Shown here: piece by piece, positions 994 to 9,027 of the stretch | Layout: every line of letters begins with the position of its first letter | Position numbering within the stretch: position 1 is the stretch's first letter | Assembly: GCA_039715015.1 (NCBI GenBank) | Contig: JBDLIE010000037.1 | Span: 1 to 24,764, forward strand | Length of the DNA: 24,764 nt | Reading direction: 5' to 3' | DNA from: Thermodesulfobacteriota bacterium | GTDB taxonomy: Bacteria; Desulfobacterota; Desulfobulbia; Desulfobulbales; SURF-16 | Notes under the pieces: model-generated | The model's database searches: none | What the model saw: the letters and a program-made list of their open reading frames with translations, nothing else | Told to the model about the DNA's origin: nothing | Translations under genes and position numbers: made by a program

Positions 994-1785
994 TTAAAAG
1001 GAGAAGCTTGCTGAAACACCTCCGTAGAAGGTGGTTTCATCGTTGTCAAAGGCTGCGTTGTCAATTTCCAACAGGTCTTCGGCATCATCTGACAGGGCAA
1101 ATGAACAATAGGCCTCCGGAGTAATGGTCAGGTATTGGCCGACGCTGATGGGCAGGGCCACTGACAAGACACCGTCGAAGAAGTTGCTAAATTCGTCGGT
1201 TGGGTCTGAGGGGTCGGCATAGGTGGTCTCCTCGTCCGCCAAAAGATAGCTGGCCTTTGCTCCAATGTCGAGGGACATGGATTCTCCCAGGAGGAAAGAG
1301 TGCGAAATCTCGGCGGTAATGTACCAGCCAGGGAAAGAGTCATAGTCTCGGTAAATGGTCAGGGTGGGAGCCAGCAGAATATCCTTGCGCAGCGCAGCAT
1401 AAACTTCCTGGCTGTCATTGCCGCCATCTAAAGCATAATAGATATAGCCCGCTCCAAAGTCGAGACCGAACATGGACCAATCGTAGGAAAGGGTGAGGTC
1501 CGTCTCGTTCCAGTTATTGGTTTCCGAGGCAGTAGGGTCGTATTGCTCGGTGTCCAGGTTGCCCCAGAGATTGGCGGCAAATCCTTTGTAAGATACGGTC
1601 ATAGATGGCTGGATGACCAAACTGTCTTCACTTAAAGTCCAACCGCGCCAGACATATTGGCTGTATAGGCCCACGCTTAGATCGGCCTCGGGCTTTTCTT
1701 CTTCGGCCCCTGCCAGGGTGAAGGTGGCCAGAGCCATGGTGCCGCAAAGTAGGGATGTCATAATTTTTCTGGAAATACTTTTCAT
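994..1785 (-). CDS. putative outer-membrane beta-barrel/porin (TorF / Gcw_chp TIGR02001-like)
   Basis: Signal peptide (…LAGA), YSQYVWRG motif, alternating aromatic beta-strands, C-terminal Phe (SASFSF), SD AGAGGAG. This family is often found beside glnK-amtB. Confidence 0.75.
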   Translation of the reverse strand: MKSISRKIMTSLLCGTMALATFTLAGAEEEKPEADLSVGLYSQYVWRGWTLSEDSLVIQPSMTVSYKGFAANLWGNLDTEQYDPTASETNNWNETDLTLSYDWSMFGLDFGAGYIYYALDGGNDSQEVYAALRKDILLAPTLTIYRDYDSFPGWYITAEISHSFLLGESMSLDIGAKASYLLADEETTYADPSDPTDEFSNFFDGVLSVALPISVGQYLTITPEAYCSFALSDDAEDLLEIDNAAFDNDETTFYGGVSASFSF

Positions 1786-1821
1786 GTTACTTCTCCTCTC
1801 TTAAAAAAGATAAAAATGTGT

Positions 1822-1856
1822 AAAAAACCCGGCAGCGTCTGTCGCCGCTGCCGGGT
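1822..1856 (-). terminator. rho-independent terminator after amtB
   Basis: ACCCGGCAGCG-8 nt loop-CGCTGCCGGGT followed by a T-run on the minus strand. Confidence 0.75.
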
Positions 1857-1867
1857 GGTAAAGATGG

Positions 1868-3181
1868 TTACTTGGTGACAAAGTCGTGGTAGGCGTGGGC
1901 GCCATGCTCAACAATGTCAACACCGAGAAGCTCTTCTTCTTCAGTGATTCGCAGGCCAACGGTCACGTCGATCAGCTTGAAGAGGATGTAGGCGCAGCCA
2001 AAGGCCCAGATAAAGGCGGAACCGATACCAATGAGCTGGGTGGTGATGATTTTGGCAGTTACGCCTTCCATGTTAAAGAGCCCGGCTGCCAAGGTTCCCC
2101 AGGCGCCACAGACACCGTGCACGGAAACCGCACCAACAGGATCGTCGATATGCATACGGTCAATGGCCATGACGGACAGGACAACCAGGACACCGGAGGC
2201 AGCGCCGATGATCAAGGAGCTGGATGGGCTGACGTTAGCGCAACCAGCGGTGATACCTACCAGGCCTGCCAGGGCACCGTTTAGGCTCATGCCGATATCA
2301 GGCTTCTTGAAGATGAGCCAGGAGGTGAGCATGGCGGCAATGGCGCCGGTGGCGGCTGAAAGATTGGTGTTCACAAAAATCATGGCGATGGTCTTGTCGG
2401 CAGTGGTGGTGGAACCGGGGTTGAAGCCGAACCATCCGAGCCAGAGGATGAAAACACCCAGGGCTGCCATGGGAATGCTGTGGCCGGGGATGGCCTTAAC
2501 TTCGCCCTTGGGGCCATACTTGCCGATCCGCGGGCCGAGAACCATGGCACCGGCCAGGGCTGCCCAGCCGCCGACGGAGTGGACAACGGTGGAGCCGGCG
2601 AAATCTATAAAGCCGAGTCCTTCCAGCCAGCCATTACCGTTCAGTAAGCTGCCCCAGGCCCAAGAGCCGAAAACCGGGTAGATAAAGGCACAAAGAACAG
2701 CAGAATAGATAAGGTAGCCGGTGAACTTGGTACGCTCTGCTACCGCACCGGAAACGATGGTGGCGGCTGTGGCGGCGAACACACACTGAAACATCCAGAA
2801 GGCCAGGACCCATGGATCTCCATCAGGTGTCCAGCCGGACAGGAAAAAGTCACTGGTGCCGAACCAGCCTGTGCTGGTAGCGCCAAACATGATGCCAAAA
2901 CCAAAGGCCCAGAAGAAAAATGAACCCATGGAGAAATCCATCAGGTTTTTCATCATAATGTTGACAGCACTCTTGGCCCGGGTAAAGCCAGACTCAACCA
3001 TGGCAAAGCCAGCCTGCATGAAAAAGACCAAGGCAGCGGCAATGAGGGTCCAGAGATAGTTGGCATGGTCTTGGACAAGGGCGATGGCGTCAGCATTGCT
3101 GGCAATTGTTGGCGGCGCATCTTCGGCCAAAGCCAGGGAGGGCGCCAGGATTAGGGCGGTTAAAAGAATCTTTTTAAACAT
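1868..3181 (-). CDS. amtB: ammonium transporter AmtB
   Basis: FMQAGFAMVESG, FQCVFAATAATIVSGAVAER, DFAGSTVVH, WFGFNPGS and DDPVGAVSVHG (twin His intact), plus signal peptide. ATG 3181 follows GAGG. Confidence 0.97.
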   Translation of the reverse strand: MFKKILLTALILAPSLALAEDAPPTIASNADAIALVQDHANYLWTLIAAALVFFMQAGFAMVESGFTRAKSAVNIMMKNLMDFSMGSFFFWAFGFGIMFGATSTGWFGTSDFFLSGWTPDGDPWVLAFWMFQCVFAATAATIVSGAVAERTKFTGYLIYSAVLCAFIYPVFGSWAWGSLLNGNGWLEGLGFIDFAGSTVVHSVGGWAALAGAMVLGPRIGKYGPKGEVKAIPGHSIPMAALGVFILWLGWFGFNPGSTTTADKTIAMIFVNTNLSAATGAIAAMLTSWLIFKKPDIGMSLNGALAGLVGITAGCANVSPSSSLIIGAASGVLVVLSVMAIDRMHIDDPVGAVSVHGVCGAWGTLAAGLFNMEGVTAKIITTQLIGIGSAFIWAFGCAYILFKLIDVTVGLRITEEEELLGVDIVEHGAHAYHDFVTK

Positions 3182-3246
3182 GGGTAAAACCTCTTTTGGT
3201 GAGCCTTGCGGCGTGATTATTGTCATTTGCCTTGCTGTCTTGTCGC

Positions 3247-3735
<489 letters not shown>

Positions 3736-3792: not shown

Positions 3793-3835
3793 ATTAGGAA
3801 AGTCTGGGCTGCGAATGAAGAGAGGCCAGAGGGTA

Positions 3836-4282
3836 TTATCTGGCAGTTTGGAGGATAAAATCTTTAGCGTTGTCTCCCCGAAGATTTTCTGCCAGGCCGA
3901 TAAGGCCGTCTTTCAGATATTTGGTGCTGTATCCAAGAGTTGCTAAGTAGGTGCGAGCCATGATGGCCCTGTCTTTATGGGGGCAGGCAGTGACAATCAC
4001 CTTGGATTTATCAAGCTCTGAAAGTCTACCCGGCAGTTCATTAATGGGGATATTGCGGGCAATTGCCATGTGCCAGGCCTCATATTCTTCCTTGAATCGA
4101 ATGTCGATCAATTGGGCCTTTCCTTCTGTAAAGAGCTTAATAAATTCTTTGCTGCTTATTTTCATCTCTATCCGCTCTGCATAGTCAAAGGTGCGGAGAT
4201 AGCTGCCCAACTCCTCGGCACCATGGGCAAACGATACAAGGCTGCAAAGAAAAAAAAGAGGAAGGATGATGGTTTTTGTCAT
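3836..4282 (-). CDS. secreted single-domain rhodanese-like protein
   Basis: Signal peptide (…AHGA), LIDIR…EYEAWH…ARNIP, active-site loop CPHKDRA, YLKDGL. SD AGGAG. Confidence 0.85.
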   Translation of the reverse strand: MTKTIILPLFFLCSLVSFAHGAEELGSYLRTFDYAERIEMKISSKEFIKLFTEGKAQLIDIRFKEEYEAWHMAIARNIPINELPGRLSELDKSKVIVTACPHKDRAIMARTYLATLGYSTKYLKDGLIGLAENLRGDNAKDFILQTAR

Positions 4283-4615
4283 GTTCTGCTCCTGGGTATT
4301 AAGAGAATAATCAAGGGCTTTTGGGAAGCTTGAGTTCCAAGATGGCTGCTACAATGAAGTAAGAGCTTGATTGCCTGTGATAGTCAAGTTTATAGATTGT
4401 GGGCCTCAATTTAATTGCCGACAAGAAATTTCTATGAGAAATAGATCAGCACTCCATTTCATCCCCTTGCTTTTGAGCCCCATTGGGGTTGGCGATCTCC
4501 AGGGCCCATTCGCCTGTCCAGCATTGACAGAATCGGCAATGACATGGGATATATGAATGAGTATATTATTGAAATAGAATTAAATTCTAAGAATTTTAAG
4601 GGGCGATTCTTTACT

Positions 4616-6046
4616 ATGGCCAATGTGTTGATTGTTGATGACGATCCCGTCATCTGTCGGATTATGTCCCGGGCAATTGCTGAGATGAATCACCACGTCT
4701 CAGCTGTTCATACCCTTGCCGAAGGGCTTGCCGAGTCGCAGAAAACAGATTTTGACATTGTTCTTCTTGATGTATGCATGCCGGACGGCAATGGCATGGA
4801 ATTTGTCCCCCTCATCATGCAAACTCCATCACAGCCTGAAGTCATTATCATCACCGCCCTGGGTTCCTCAGGGGGGGCGGAAATAGCGATTAAAAACGGC
4901 GCGTGGGATTACCTGCAAAAACCCGTTTCCAAGCAGGATCTTGCCCTGGCCTTAAGACAGGCCCATCTCTACCGGAAGAGCCGGCAACAGGCGGCGCTCG
5001 AGCGTCCAACCCTCAAACGTCATGGCATCATCGGTGACAGCCCTCGAATCAGAGAATGCCGCGATGCCCTGGCCCAGGCAGCCCAGAGCAAGGCGAGCGT
5101 CTTGATCTGTGGCGAAACCGGCACTGGCAAAGAACTGTTTGCCCAGGCCATCCATTCCAACAGCCCCCGGGCCAAGAAAAATTTCGTGGTTGTCGATTGT
5201 GCCGCTTTACCTGCAAACCTGATTGAAAGCGCGCTGTTTGGCCATGAACGCGGAGCTTTCACTGGGGCGAACCGTGCCCAGGTCGGCCTTGTCAAACAGG
5301 CTGACGGCGGAACTCTTTTTTTGGACGAAATCGGCGAACTTCCTTTATCTCTTCAGAAAAACTTTCTTCGAGTCCTGCAGGAACACTGTTTTCGTCCGAT
5401 CGGCAGCGACCAGGAGCAGGAAAGTGACTTCAGGCTGGTGGCGGCAACCCACCGCAATCTCGACAGAATGGTGAGCGACGGGTTATTCCGTCAGGATCTG
5501 ATGTACCGTCTCCGGTCCATCAGCATTGAGTTGCCGGCTCTGCGGGAACGTCAAGAGGATATTGCCAACCTGGCCCAGAAGAAGGCGGACAAAATCTGCC
5601 ATGAAAATGGCATCCCCCCTAAAAGCTTTGCCAATGACGCCCTCGAAGCGCTCCATGCTTATGGCTGGCCCGGCAATGTCCGGGAGCTGATCAACACCCT
5701 GGAGGCGACAATTAATAAAGCCTTTAACGAGCAGGTGCTTTTTGCAAGACATCTTCCTCAGCAGCTCCGCATCCAGATAAAAAAGGAACAACTCGATGAC
5801 CTCCCTGCTGGCCAGATGCAGGAGTCACAGGTCAAGGGGGCTGTCCCGGCCTCTCCCCTTGGCCCTATGCCCTCCTTTCGTCAGCACCGAGAAGCAATCG
5901 TGCTGGAGGCTGAGAAAGAATACCTGGAAAACCTCCTGACCCTGACCAATGGCTCCAGAAAGGAAGCCTGCCGTATTGCCGATCTGGGACGGACCCGCCT
6001 CTATAACCTCCTAAAAAAGCACGGTTTGGGTCGTTCCCCTTTCTAG
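4616..6046 (+). CDS. sigma54-dependent response regulator / enhancer-binding protein (NtrC/AtoC family; REC-AAA+-HTH)
   Basis: VLIVDDD…LLDVCMPDGNG…KP receiver, GETGTGKE Walker A, ESALFGHERGAFTGA, FLDEIGEL, WPGNVREL and a C-terminal Fis-type HTH. ATG 4616 follows AAGGGG. Confidence 0.95.
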   Translation: MANVLIVDDDPVICRIMSRAIAEMNHHVSAVHTLAEGLAESQKTDFDIVLLDVCMPDGNGMEFVPLIMQTPSQPEVIIITALGSSGGAEIAIKNGAWDYLQKPVSKQDLALALRQAHLYRKSRQQAALERPTLKRHGIIGDSPRIRECRDALAQAAQSKASVLICGETGTGKELFAQAIHSNSPRAKKNFVVVDCAALPANLIESALFGHERGAFTGANRAQVGLVKQADGGTLFLDEIGELPLSLQKNFLRVLQEHCFRPIGSDQEQESDFRLVAATHRNLDRMVSDGLFRQDLMYRLRSISIELPALRERQEDIANLAQKKADKICHENGIPPKSFANDALEALHAYGWPGNVRELINTLEATINKAFNEQVLFARHLPQQLRIQIKKEQLDDLPAGQMQESQVKGAVPASPLGPMPSFRQHREAIVLEAEKEYLENLLTLTNGSRKEACRIADLGRTRLYNLLKKHGLGRSPF

Positions 6047-6070
6047 CCTCTCCGGTGGTTCTCCTGTGCT

Positions 6071-6129
6071 GTGTTTTATTTGTGAACATGGGCGTTCACT
6101 TTTTATGAACATGTTCGCCTCAAGAGAAC
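6071..6129. promoter_or_regulatory. tandem GTTC-N9-GAAC palindromes, candidate bEBP enhancer
   Basis: GTTC-N9-GAAC at 6094-6110 and 6113-6129, with an imperfect copy at 6071-6087, about 90-145 bp upstream of the -24 box. Confidence 0.6.
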
Positions 6130-6175
6130 TATTGTGGTGGCCGTTTAGAGCACCTCTCAATGCCGTAATCTCTTT

Positions 6176-6188
6176 AATCCCTTGAAAA
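6176..6188. promoter_or_regulatory. IHF-like binding site
   Basis: TAATCCCTTGAAA versus consensus YAAnnnnTTGATW (one mismatch), lying between the enhancer and the sigma54 promoter. Confidence 0.4.
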
Positions 6189-6215
6189 CAAAGTAAAAAA
6201 TATAATAAGTCAGTG

Positions 6216-6232
6216 TTGGCACAGCCTTTGCT
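6216..6232 (+). promoter_or_regulatory. sigma54 (RpoN) promoter
   Basis: TTGGCACAGCCTTTGCT matches TGGCAC-N5-TTGCW exactly. Confidence 0.85.
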
Positions 6233-6298
6233 AGCTCTTGCTGTTGCAACACTTCTGTGGCAGCACTGCGTACAAGCAAAAAAAGGGGGCTTTCCTAG

Positions 6299-6358
6299 GT
6301 GGTAATCCCCTGGATATTAAAGATGTTCCTCCTAATGATCATTTTTACCTATATTTAA
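6299..6358 (+). CDS. candidate 19-aa hydrophobic small protein (MVIPWILKMFLLMIIFTYI)
   Basis: GTG 6299 to TAA 6356-6358, with AAGGGGG 9 nt upstream, directly downstream of the sigma54 promoter. Too short for the ORF track. Confidence 0.4.
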   Translation: MVIPWILKMFLLMIIFTYI

Positions 6359-6385
6359 AGAATTCAAATGTCGATTTGCCAACAC

Positions 6386-6417
6386 AGGTAACAAAAAGAC
6401 CAACCCTTTTGTTACTT
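6386..6417. terminator. AT-rich hairpin between the convergent small transcript and pilZ
   Basis: GTAACAAAA-N10-TTTTGTTAC; weak, with no clear U-tract. Confidence 0.35.
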
Positions 6418-6468
6418 GAAGGACAGGGGGGGTGTAGGGGGGGAGAAAAGTCTCCGTCGGGCACATTT

Positions 6469-6870
6469 CTAAATGCCTAGGAATTTCTGTAAAGACTGAT
6501 AGTCATCATCATGGATATCGATAAACACTACACCGCACTCGTACTCATTGCCGTCGTCAGATGGTTTGCTCCAGACAACTTTGGCAAGCACGGTCAATGG
6601 TTTGCCCACAGATGAATCGTCAAGCTTGAAAGAAAGATTTTTTTTGTGAATGTGCCAGCCTGGAAGATGAATACTGAGGGTGAGAGTGGTGTTGGGTGCA
6701 AACATGGTGGCTGAGCGAAAGCAGATGCCGACAGGGCTGATGTCTTTACTGCGACCTAGGTCTTTGCTCTGGGGTGACAGTGGATAGGTCAATTCACTCA
6801 CACCGATAGTTGCCTCTTTGGGAAGGCGTGCAAAACGGCGCGATTTATTTTCGGCATCCTGAGTAGTCAT
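6469..6870 (-). CDS. PilZ domain-containing protein (c-di-GMP receptor)
   Basis: RRFAR (RxxxR) and DISPVG (D/NxSxxG) motifs, AKVVW…YECGVVF. ATG 6870 follows AAGGA. Confidence 0.9.
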   Translation of the reverse strand: MTTQDAENKSRRFARLPKEATIGVSELTYPLSPQSKDLGRSKDISPVGICFRSATMFAPNTTLTLSIHLPGWHIHKKNLSFKLDDSSVGKPLTVLAKVVWSKPSDDGNEYECGVVFIDIHDDDYQSLQKFLGI

Positions 6871-7170
6871 CGAATTGTATTTCCTTGTAGTTGAGAGGTG
6901 GTAAGTAGCCAAGATGTGAGGATTAATTTGTGAATATATTAGACATAATCTGCCTGATGATCAAGGCGTATGAATAACATATGCAACTATTAAAATAGAT
7001 TGTTTCCGGATCATTATTTATTCCTGCTTGCCGCAGGGGGCAAGATTTGGGCGGCTATAATTTTTTAAGGCAAAAATGAAATTATTTTTTACAACTAATT
7101 GCGATAGTGGGATTGAAGATGATAACCTGTTTAGGTGGCTATTAAGTTTACGAGCAAGAAGTCTAGCCGC

Positions 7171-7255
7171 TACGACGAGTTTACGACAACCTTACGACAA
7201 GTTTATTACGACAACTTTACGACAAGTTTATTGCGACACGTTTACGACAAGTTTA
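7171..7255 (+). repeat. direct tandem repeat array: 7 TACGAC cores, 25-bp super-unit x3
   Basis: Cores start at 7171, 7182, 7193, 7207, 7218, 7232 (TGCGAC) and 7243, spaced 11,11,14,11,14,11. Unit ~TTACGACAACTTTACGACAAGTTTA at 7181, 7206 and 7231. Confidence 0.95.
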
Positions 7256-9027
7256 TGAATAAAGTATTGATTGTAGATAAAGCTCTTGAGCATCTGAAGC
7301 TCATGGAGTCAAGACTTGATGGTGCAAACGTCAAGTTTGAGGTTCTAACTGCTTCTAGCGGCGAAGATGCCGTCAAAATTCTCAAGAAACATTCCATTGC
7401 CACTCTGGTGACGGGTCTGTATTTGTCCAAAATGAGCGGGCTTGATCTGCTGGATTACATGAGCCAGCAGCATAGCAAAACCCCCTGCGTTGTAATTAGC
7501 CAACATGGTGATCCGGAAATCCGGGCCATGCTGGGGCACCGCGGTATCTTCGCCTTCTTTGAAAAGCCTTGTGATCTTGAAATGCTGTCCGATGCCGTAA
7601 ATGACGCTCTTTTTCATTTTGAGCAGGCCGGTGGTGTTGATGGTTTATCTATTTCAGGATTTTTGCAGCTCATGGAAATGGAAGATAAAAGCTGCACACT
7701 AGAGGTGAGCCATCCACCCAATGAAGTGGGGAAGTTTTACTGTGTTGAAGGGCAGCTGCATGATGCCGAATTCGGTGATCTGAGAGGGGAAGAGGCCGCT
7801 CACACCATGATAGGCTGCTGGGAAAATGTCTCTCTCAGGCTCAAAAGCCTCCCTTCAAAACATATAGAGCGACGAATCAACGTAACCCTTCAGGCCCTTA
7901 TCTTAGACAGCGCCCGTCGCAAGGACGAGGTATGCCTACCCTCTGAAGATTCTGCTGAAAAGGTCAAAACATCTTGTCCGGATGATCAGCTTAGGCAGGC
8001 GATAAAAAAAGCGGAAAGCGGCGACTGCATGCTGGCCCATAAGATGCTGATCGCCCTGCTTCAAAATAATACCCAAAATTTTCAAGGATGGATCTGGTTT
8101 TCCCGGGTGGCCGGTACCATAAAGGCCGTCAAGGCCGCGCTCCATAATGCCAGTATTCTGGCCCCAGAGGATGCAGAAATTCAGGAACGTCAGAAGCAAT
8201 TGGCAAAAGCTCTGGAGGCCGGCTGTCCTGAGGTGGGGCCCATTGAGCATTGTCCCTTCTGCTGGACATCGGTTAGTAAGCGGAGTGCCATATGTCCCTG
8301 GTGCCACGGCATGCTCACTATCAGCAAAGAGAAACTGCTCAGCACAACCGGCGAAACTATAAATAGGGACATGCTTGACAAGGGTTTTCACCGTTATGTC
8401 AAGGTGACACTCCTTGACAGGAGTAACGTTAAGGCCCACTATAACCTCGCCCTGGCGTGCCTGAGTTTAGGGAAATACGATGATGCTCTTGAGCATCTGT
8501 ACACGGTTAGAAAGCTTGCCCCTAAAAATAAATTTTATAATGAACAGCTTGCAATTTTGCTCGATTATCTGGCATCCATGGAATCTTCGACTTCCATTGG
8601 CGGTGAGGAAAAGATTGCAGGAAAAAGGCAGGGCGGCACTGGCGGCCAGTCAAAAAGGATAATTTTGGTTGTTGAAGACAGTGCCACAACCCGCAAGGTC
8701 ATAACCTTAATGCTTGAGGAGCAGGATTTTGAGGTTGTCCAGGCCAAGAACGGTATTGATGCTTTAGCAAAGTTTAATGAGATAACCCCTGACCTGGTTC
8801 TCCTCGACATCATAATGCCGGGGATGGATGGCTATGAAGTTCTCTCGACCATAAAAAAGAATGAAATCTTAAAGGACATCCCGGTCATCATGTTGACCGC
8901 TAAAGATTCGTTAATGGATAAAATTAAAGGGAAGATGTCCGCTTCAAATGAATATCTGACCAAGCCTTTTACCTCGGAAGAATTGATGGTGAAAATAAAT
9001 AAATATTTACCAACGACTGGGTTTTAG
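7255..9027 (+). CDS. multidomain response regulator: pseudo-REC, DUF4388/PatA-N, TPR, CxxC-CxxC Zn ribbon, TPR, REC (PilG/PatA-like)
   Basis: MNKVLIVD receiver start, LSISGFLQLMEMEDKSCTLEV…GQLHDA (DUF4388-like), CPFC…CPWC, AHYNLALA…, and an intact C-terminal REC (VVEDS, LLDIIMPGMDG, YLTKPF). The frame is open back to GTG 7135. Confidence 0.85.
   Translation: MNKVLIVDKALEHLKLMESRLDGANVKFEVLTASSGEDAVKILKKHSIATLVTGLYLSKMSGLDLLDYMSQQHSKTPCVVISQHGDPEIRAMLGHRGIFAFFEKPCDLEMLSDAVNDALFHFEQAGGVDGLSISGFLQLMEMEDKSCTLEVSHPPNEVGKFYCVEGQLHDAEFGDLRGEEAAHTMIGCWENVSLRLKSLPSKHIERRINVTLQALILDSARRKDEVCLPSEDSAEKVKTSCPDDQLRQAIKKAESGDCMLAHKMLIALLQNNTQNFQGWIWFSRVAGTIKAVKAALHNASILAPEDAEIQERQKQLAKALEAGCPEVGPIEHCPFCWTSVSKRSAICPWCHGMLTISKEKLLSTTGETINRDMLDKGFHRYVKVTLLDRSNVKAHYNLALACLSLGKYDDALEHLYTVRKLAPKNKFYNEQLAILLDYLASMESSTSIGGEEKIAGKRQGGTGGQSKRIILVVEDSATTRKVITLMLEEQDFEVVQAKNGIDALAKFNEITPDLVLLDIIMPGMDGYEVLSTIKKNEILKDIPVIMLTAKDSLMDKIKGKMSASNEYLTKPFTSEELMVKINKYLPTTGF

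Follow-up and report, generated by a model that had tools for sequence, protein, structure and literature searches.

The 24,764-nt stretch of DNA analysed here (the window) carries, in the intergenic region between the end of a bEBP gene at 6046 and the convergent stop codon of a pilZ-domain gene at 6469-6471, a σ54 promoter cassette that is, judged from its motifs, complete and that has no protein gene behind it. This is probably an orphaned promoter, which has lost its cargo by rearrangement and now faces debris. The sequence-only reading of the window had recognised the cassette and had proposed as its output an RNA of ~175 nt: an sRNA, the message of a small protein or an antisense RNA to the 3' end of pilZ.

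Promoter, enhancers and regulator

The host genome (G000) has a size of 3.0 Mb in 100 contigs, with a completeness of 99.99% and a contamination of 0.53%. The bEBP gene (4544-6046, + strand) encodes a response regulator of REC-AAA-HTH architecture with an intact GAFTGA motif, which is the likely activator of the σ54 promoter that follows, and its branch length of 0.45 is ordinary for the clade (range 0.40-0.66). Literature on this locus or its bEBP clade was not found in the limited paper collection searched. On the other side of the bEBP gene, at 994-3660 on the - strand, lie glnK/amtB-like ammonium-uptake genes, named by reading their translations, with their own σ54-like box at 3642 (9/10).

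The promoter, TGGCAC-N5-TTGCT, is located at 6217-6232 on the + strand right behind the bEBP gene, as earlier reported; it contains the GG-N10-GC (-24/-12) boxes, matches the consensus at 10/10 positions and is the only σ54 box of at least 7/10 in 6000-7300. The same sequence occurs nine times genome-wide versus zero times in the reversed genome. The start is predicted at 6243-6244, in agreement with the earlier placement at ~6244. The tandem GTTC-N9-GAAC palindromes of the sequence-only reading are likewise present, at 6094-6110 and 6113-6129, and as a pair they are unique in the genome. They form the cores of UAS site 2 (6093-6111, at -124 from the -24 box) and site 3 (6112-6130, at -105). 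The pair thus stands, and what had been missed is a third enhancer, site 1, a 19-bp sequence of the TGT-N13-ACA type at 6070-6088 (-147). A palindrome matrix derived from 109 loci, the window not among them, gives as its top three sites in 6040-6470 those starting at 6112, 6070 and 6093. The hairpin at 6386-6417, considered as a further enhancer palindrome, found no support from the family matrices, and enhancer-like matches on contigs C45 and C66 of the same genome appear to be in coding sequence. Between enhancers and promoter there is an A/T-rich, IHF-like bending region (6166-6210), whose match is loose (two mismatches, at 6166 or 6175, to the IHF consensus) and whose A-rich block is common to the window, the related locus of genome G005 and a paralog on contig C62.

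In the host genome, paired UAS sites of the clade type were found at just two places, this one and the C62 paralog, and the promoter at 6217-6232 is the only apparent target of the adjacent bEBP. Co-location of regulator and promoter across the family (see below) suggests that the adjacent bEBP likely activates this promoter, which agrees with the frequent co-localisation of bEBPs and their targets in Desulfovibrio (PMC4641369). In Desulfovibrio vulgaris, bEBP genes are co-localised with the target σ54 promoter, e.g., DVU0118-DVU0123 (PMC4641369; PMC3333781 and its supplementary Tables S7-S9). The DVU0118 type resembles the window in that the regulator adjoins the promoter, in its tGGcacg/tTGCt boxes and in its TGT...ACA palindromes. 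This likeness is one of layout and motif, the spacer in the window (N9) being one base longer than in the DVU0118 site TGTTC-N8-GAACA. Unlike the DVU0118 type as there described, however, the window has no target gene behind the promoter, as the sequence-only reading had observed: within 600 nt there is no ORF of at least 80 aa with an ATG or a Shine-Dalgarno sequence.

Cargo genes at homologous loci

The cassette was compared with 183 sequences around bEBP homologues, of which 172 include the C-terminus and which represent 151 distinct proteins. Downstream sequence of 300 nt or more is available for 136 loci, one of them the window. In 110 of these a σ54 site, defined as at least 8/10 in the first 450 nt, follows the bEBP gene, compared with 6/136 on the reverse strand and 10/102 further downstream. 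Of the loci with a promoter, 98 have sufficient sequence behind it for an ORF to be sought. In 85 of them a co-oriented ORF of 80 aa or longer begins no more than 120 nt from the predicted start; the first ORF lies within 250 nt in three others and within 600 nt in five, and five loci, the window among these, have none within 600 nt. These ORF calls are mechanical; 47 of them fall in one family of ~125-aa proteins, which is thus the first gene behind 47/98 family promoters, and the others in clear clusters. The one member of the ~125-aa family that was scanned has no Pfam match, and a profile of the family found nothing in the three + frames of the window. Members precede cheW/MCP genes in several loci, and one member is encoded on contig C52 of the host genome. 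Co-oriented MCP/CheW genes are present within 3 kb of at least 13 of 77 family promoters.

The window groups in the tree with G005, G004, G003 and the paralog on C62 (support 1.0), and no bEBP relative closer than ~60% identity was found in genome or metagenome scans. In G005 (L007), the nearest relative, the enhancer triad at -148/-125/-105 is followed by an operon with the gene of a 126-aa member of the ~125-aa family, then that of a binding protein of the ABC type and an MCP-like ORF. The window resembles G005 across the enhancers and the -12 box and no further. The sequence-only reading had itself named a full-length gene at this place in relatives as the observation that would speak against an RNA module; relatives usually carry a protein gene behind the promoter (85/98 loci, G005 included). 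Behind the paralogous bEBP on C62 (3642-5066), the same cassette is followed by a 263-nt leader before the first ORF.

Sequence behind the -12 box

At 6241-6267, on top of the predicted start, there are ~1.5 copies of a second motif, GCnACA-N4-TGTnGC, with a full site at 6246-6261 and the right half alone of a preceding one. Positions 6241-6266 are identical in 25/26 bases to sequence that closely follows another bEBP gene in G248, and similarity to that cluster of sites starts mid-site, at 6241. In its longer form (TGCnACA-N4-TGTnGCA) the motif occurs six times in the host genome versus zero times in the reversed genome, in clusters upstream of σ54 promoters. Such clusters precede hmc/tmc-like and NrfD-like electron-transfer genes on contig C7, and the motif also immediately follows the gene for the C7 ortholog of the G248 regulator. 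With a matrix built from nine non-window sites, 6246-6261 ranks third genome-wide (21.6 bits), while above a lower cut-off 44 sites were counted in the real genome versus 21 in the reversed one. Among the seven top-scoring sites, those of the others that have a promoter nearby are mostly 67-200 bp upstream, whereas 6246-6261 covers about +3 to +18. A σ54 box followed by the motif within 5-25 nt was found in one of 171 genomes, G000 itself. The motif is thus likely, by its position and its abrupt left border, the cut edge of another activator's enhancer cluster, although it may alternatively be a repressor site. Its likely ligand, to judge from the position of the other sites, is the bEBP encoded at ~74.8-76.5 kb on C7, in a cluster that also contains a second bEBP. 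Sites of the form GCnACA-N4-TGTnGC at C7 ~54-77 kb, C14 ~64.3 kb and C24 ~30.4 kb outline the likely regulon of a bEBP with REC-PAS domains. A σ54 promoter on the - strand that could be served by the second motif was sought and not found; the only look-alike, near 6150-6166, carries an extra base between its boxes.

Beyond this motif, the region resembles a transposon end. The best DNA matches among relatives are the 3' ends of IS1595-family transposase genes, including decayed copies in G004 and G007 of the same genus. A run of seven A residues (6278-6284), which could be the A-rich flank typical of an IS1016 insertion or the U-tail of a decayed - strand terminator, is followed on the + strand by a left terminal inverted repeat of the IS1016 type (6286-6298, 12/13), a sequence that is similar, too, to the 5' arm of groEL-type terminators. 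The decayed, frameshifted 3' end of an IS1016-type transposase gene (IS1595 family) occupies 6312-6403 on the + strand, in the orientation expected from the left repeat, and contains the anti-SD-like stretch TTCCTCCT at 6326-6333. Possible remains of the right repeat are weak (6412-6426, + strand, with AGGACAG at 6420-6426).

Several comparisons bear on this assignment. Positions 6286-6437 align along a natural 202-bp mini-IS1016 with a score of 93.5, whereas 2000 shuffles reached at most 68 and 17,143 genome windows at most 71.5; this test is partly circular, because the 202-bp element was first found by this query. Independent IS copies, found by protein search, beat all 100 shuffles in 8/8 cases. 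A protein profile made without G048 and G004 gives the X-bridged read-through 16.6 bits versus a maximum of 9.8 in 200,000 controls, and 9/15 mismatches in the IS-homologous stretch fall at third codon positions. DNA profiles give a weaker result, with E 0.43 at rank 2 genome-wide for the non-circular profile and E 0.011 at rank 1 for the circular one. The 13-nt left repeat alone is not rare (five real versus five reversed matches), and 6278-6310, which resembles a groEL terminator, folds no better than shuffles. Matches that dissolved on inspection include a candidate gene between enhancer and terminator in G008 (L003), in which the enhancer-like match is groEL coding sequence and the hairpin the groEL terminator, and matches in G703 and G117, which appear to be in coding DNA and were taken as chance.

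The intact reference copies match, in their repeats, ~710-bp length and 8-bp duplications, the IS1016 subgroup as described for ISApl4 (PMC12561309). With this subgroup the window shares a terminal repeat of the GGGGCTGT type, an A/T-rich flank and a transposase tail of the KECE(F/W)RFN type. In contrast to the elements described there, it is ~140 bp rather than ~710 bp long and frameshifted, it has no catalytic domain, its right end is decayed and it shows no target-site duplication. Read directly, the flanks of the window element differ, and an 8-bp duplication is present in 3/8 among the reference copies listed. Neither an intact IS1016 copy nor a PF12762 match was found in G000. Positions 6286 to ~6426 are thus likely, on the strength of these resemblances, a decayed miniature IS1016-type element, a remnant and not an active member, since an intact DDE transposase and the ~710-bp length are both absent. 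The natural 202-bp mini-IS1016 (L002:1423-1624, G048), with both repeats and an internal deletion, sits amid toxin-antitoxin-like genes, and another IS1016-type left end in the host genome (C18 ~3223-3262) stops after ~40 bp in repeat-like sequence, forming a second scar. Plasmid and phage blastn searches with the region returned best E-values of 0.7 and 0.8, respectively.

The scar borders a convergent pilZ-domain gene (6469-6912, - strand), which lies just before a chemotaxis cluster. The pilZ protein has matches at E ≤1e-8 in one of 60 relatives. The first regulator of the chemotaxis cluster has matches in 24 of 170 other genomes and in 0/4 of the same genus, the best of them at 48-49% identity and in another family. 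Neither pilZ nor this bEBP is present in seven stretches upstream of orthologs of the chemotaxis regulator (0/7), and no relative searched was found to have the pilZ-chemotaxis block next to this bEBP. This distribution fits a block that would have been acquired or relocated, the IS scar marking its edge. About seven 11-bp direct repeats (TACGACAAGTT) lie at 7171-7256, directly upstream of the likely start of the chemotaxis regulator, a possible protein-binding array that is unique in the genome and absent upstream of seven homologue loci checked. One marginal likeness to the leader of chemotaxis-regulator orthologs (one of 12 comparisons, 37 versus a shuffle maximum of 36) was taken as chance.

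The proposed RNA output and rival explanations

Layouts in which a bEBP drives an sRNA are known, e.g., for CrcZ and Qrr1. The sequence behind the present promoter has few of the properties that would be expected of a discrete sRNA gene of ~175 nt: about 140 nt of it is IS1016-type debris, folding of 6244-6420 is no better than chance (z -1.34), and in 400 other genomes of the order no match to the region exceeds 55 nt, in a search that scored two candidates per genome and failed to recover an IS match already known from G004. The proposed RNA has no match at the 109 other promoter-bearing homologue loci either, where the nearest bEBP relatives are at ~60% identity, and none of the relatives searched yielded most of this sequence as one unit. 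Rfam gave nothing at gathering score in the window or in three sister loci, and scans by E-value returned chance matches alone. The hairpin at 6386-6417, which had been proposed as the 3' end of the RNA, does exist; it is AU-rich, its low-coordinate arm overlaps IS-homologous sequence, and it is stable on the pilZ strand, with a z of -3.46 on the - strand versus -1.33 on the + strand, significant on the former only. No U-tail follows hairpins on the + strand, where a weak hairpin-U candidate at 6466 (~6431-6470) is predicted. A role for this hairpin as the end of a + strand RNA is thus disfavoured.

A more convincing RNA is found elsewhere in the clade. Behind sister bEBPs and a σ54 promoter in G001, G003 and G004, of the same genus, there is a conserved structured RNA of ~130-150 nt (L222:1187-1340 in G001; L009 in G003, C40 ~3830-3970, - strand; L008 in G004, C89 ~51930-52090, + strand), with a CU-rich, anti-SD-like 5' end, a 26-bp hairpin and a U-rich tail. 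Its folding z ranges from -4.0 to -6.0, one of 32 pairs is changed on both sides, and it has no Rfam match. The RNA is present in 3/301 genomes, and a homology search in five genomes, run without a positive control genome, gave no match. It is followed by a cellulose-synthase-like gene in G001 and G004 and by an unrelated ORF in G003, and because the downstream gene differs in G003 it could be an sRNA or a portable leader. RNA outputs thus occur in this bEBP clade, and the sister RNA is a better sRNA candidate than the window locus. The window (6243-6470, filters off, covariance model included) shows no similarity to it, and its model gives only a non-significant match at the C62 leader (E 1.2).

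Under the preferred reading of cargo loss, the promoter would have driven a protein operon in the ancestor, as in G005. A deletion or block exchange would then have brought the -12 box up against the interior of an enhancer cluster foreign to it, beside the IS scar that borders the pilZ-chemotaxis block. Should the bEBP still be firing, it would produce a poorly terminated RNA running towards pilZ and into its antisense strand, with no selected function. Against this reading, the promoter and enhancers have not decayed, all three enhancers score well, the bEBP is normal in its GAFTGA motif and branch length, and this is its sole apparent target. These features fit continued selection or recent loss: either the cargo was lost recently or the promoter is still useful.

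A continued use is the premise of two rival explanations. The promoter might be kept for unterminated antisense read-through over pilZ, perhaps into the co-oriented chemotaxis cluster ~1 kb downstream. Through the second-activator site, the bEBP that is the likely regulator of the hmc/tmc-like electron-transfer operons would then repress it. We regard this as unlikely. It is helped by the intact state of regulator and promoter, by the uniqueness of the σ54 box between 6000 and 7300, by the MCP/CheW genes at other family promoters and by the lack of any predicted strong + strand terminator between 6243 and 7260, where weak hairpin-U structures occur at 6466, 6484 and 6844. Noncontiguous operons and excludons are on record (PMC7154746), and as in these a gene of opposite orientation separates the promoter from a co-oriented operon, and no strong terminator intervenes; unlike these, the arrangement in the window is a prediction from sequence, and it is found in no other genome searched. 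The second motif is near-perfect as a site but looks truncated as a cluster, and the separate 11-bp repeat array suggests that the first chemotaxis gene has its own local control. Still less probable is a newborn trans-acting sRNA of ~175-225 nt, derived from the IS remnant and driven by the bEBP, in which an anti-SD loop at 6326-6333 would block translation of targets. This stretch is predicted to be mostly unpaired (6/8 positions >0.9) and contains a 3-nt addition relative to several IS copies, the hairpin-U at ~6431-6470 could end the RNA, and a CU-rich structured RNA exists at sister loci. Perfect 12-nt complements to start regions are in slight excess (six versus a mean of 2.2 and a maximum of five in 30 shuffles). 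However, seed duplex energies are no better than in CCTCCT-keeping shuffles (best -24.0 versus a mean best of -24.4; 139 versus 132 targets below -16), and the folding, the dissimilarity to the sister RNA and the lack of conservation in the genomes searched also speak against it, as does the absence of a detectable Hfq (PF17209) in this 99.99%-complete genome. CsrA is present in G000, but the proposed RNA is not a CsrA sponge of the CsrB/Rsm type, because it has only three GGA triplets (one ANGGA).

Two published systems are precedents for such an sRNA. In the Dv_sRNA2 system of D. vulgaris, a σ54 response regulator, DVU0679, likewise has a non-coding target directly downstream. The DVU0679 motif, of the CGTGC-N6-GCACG type, is unlike the sites in the window, and Dv_sRNA2 is expressed and its layout recurs in orthologs, whereas the RNA in the window is a prediction (PMC3333781 and supplement). 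The pxrR (nla19)-Pxr locus of Myxococcus xanthus also combines an NtrC-like gene, an enhancer, a σ54 promoter and non-coding sequence; the stem-loops of Pxr are conserved and a cognate kinase gene lies upstream (PMC5684412), while the window shows no conserved structure, Rfam match or adjacent kinase. The remaining explanations are remote. An assembly chimera at the junction behind the -12 box is very improbable: modules of different affinities do meet there within a few bases in a genome of 100 contigs, but the junction has no long repeat, contamination is low and both motifs match regulators of the same genome. It is hardly credible that the output is a small hydrophobic peptide encoded by one of two short ORFs, of 11 codons at 6323 and of 19 codons at 6299. 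Both are open on the + strand and hydrophobic, but neither has a good Shine-Dalgarno sequence, both sit in another frame of transposase-derived DNA and no conservation was seen in the genomes searched; nor did the two other + frames, including an 80-aa ORF, give a Pfam match. Neither the discrete ~175-nt sRNA nor the small-protein gene that the sequence-only reading had offered as options is supported; its antisense option may still hold.

In all, the comparison defines a widespread, self-contained cassette of bEBP, enhancer and promoter with interchangeable cargo. The best reading of the locus in the window is ordinary genome debris, and it carries the caution that a perfect σ54 cassette that no gene follows does not on its own count as evidence for an sRNA. 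It is conceivable, if rather doubtful, that a regulatory RNA is at birth here: the rearrangement would have placed a signal-responsive σ54 promoter and the site of a second activator before transposon debris, and the RNA would silence pilZ by antisense read-through or act in trans via its new anti-SD loop, linking an electron-transfer regulator to a c-di-GMP/chemotaxis block. Should the promoter be active and selected, the locus would show a regulatory RNA in the course of emerging from an IS scar under dual control.
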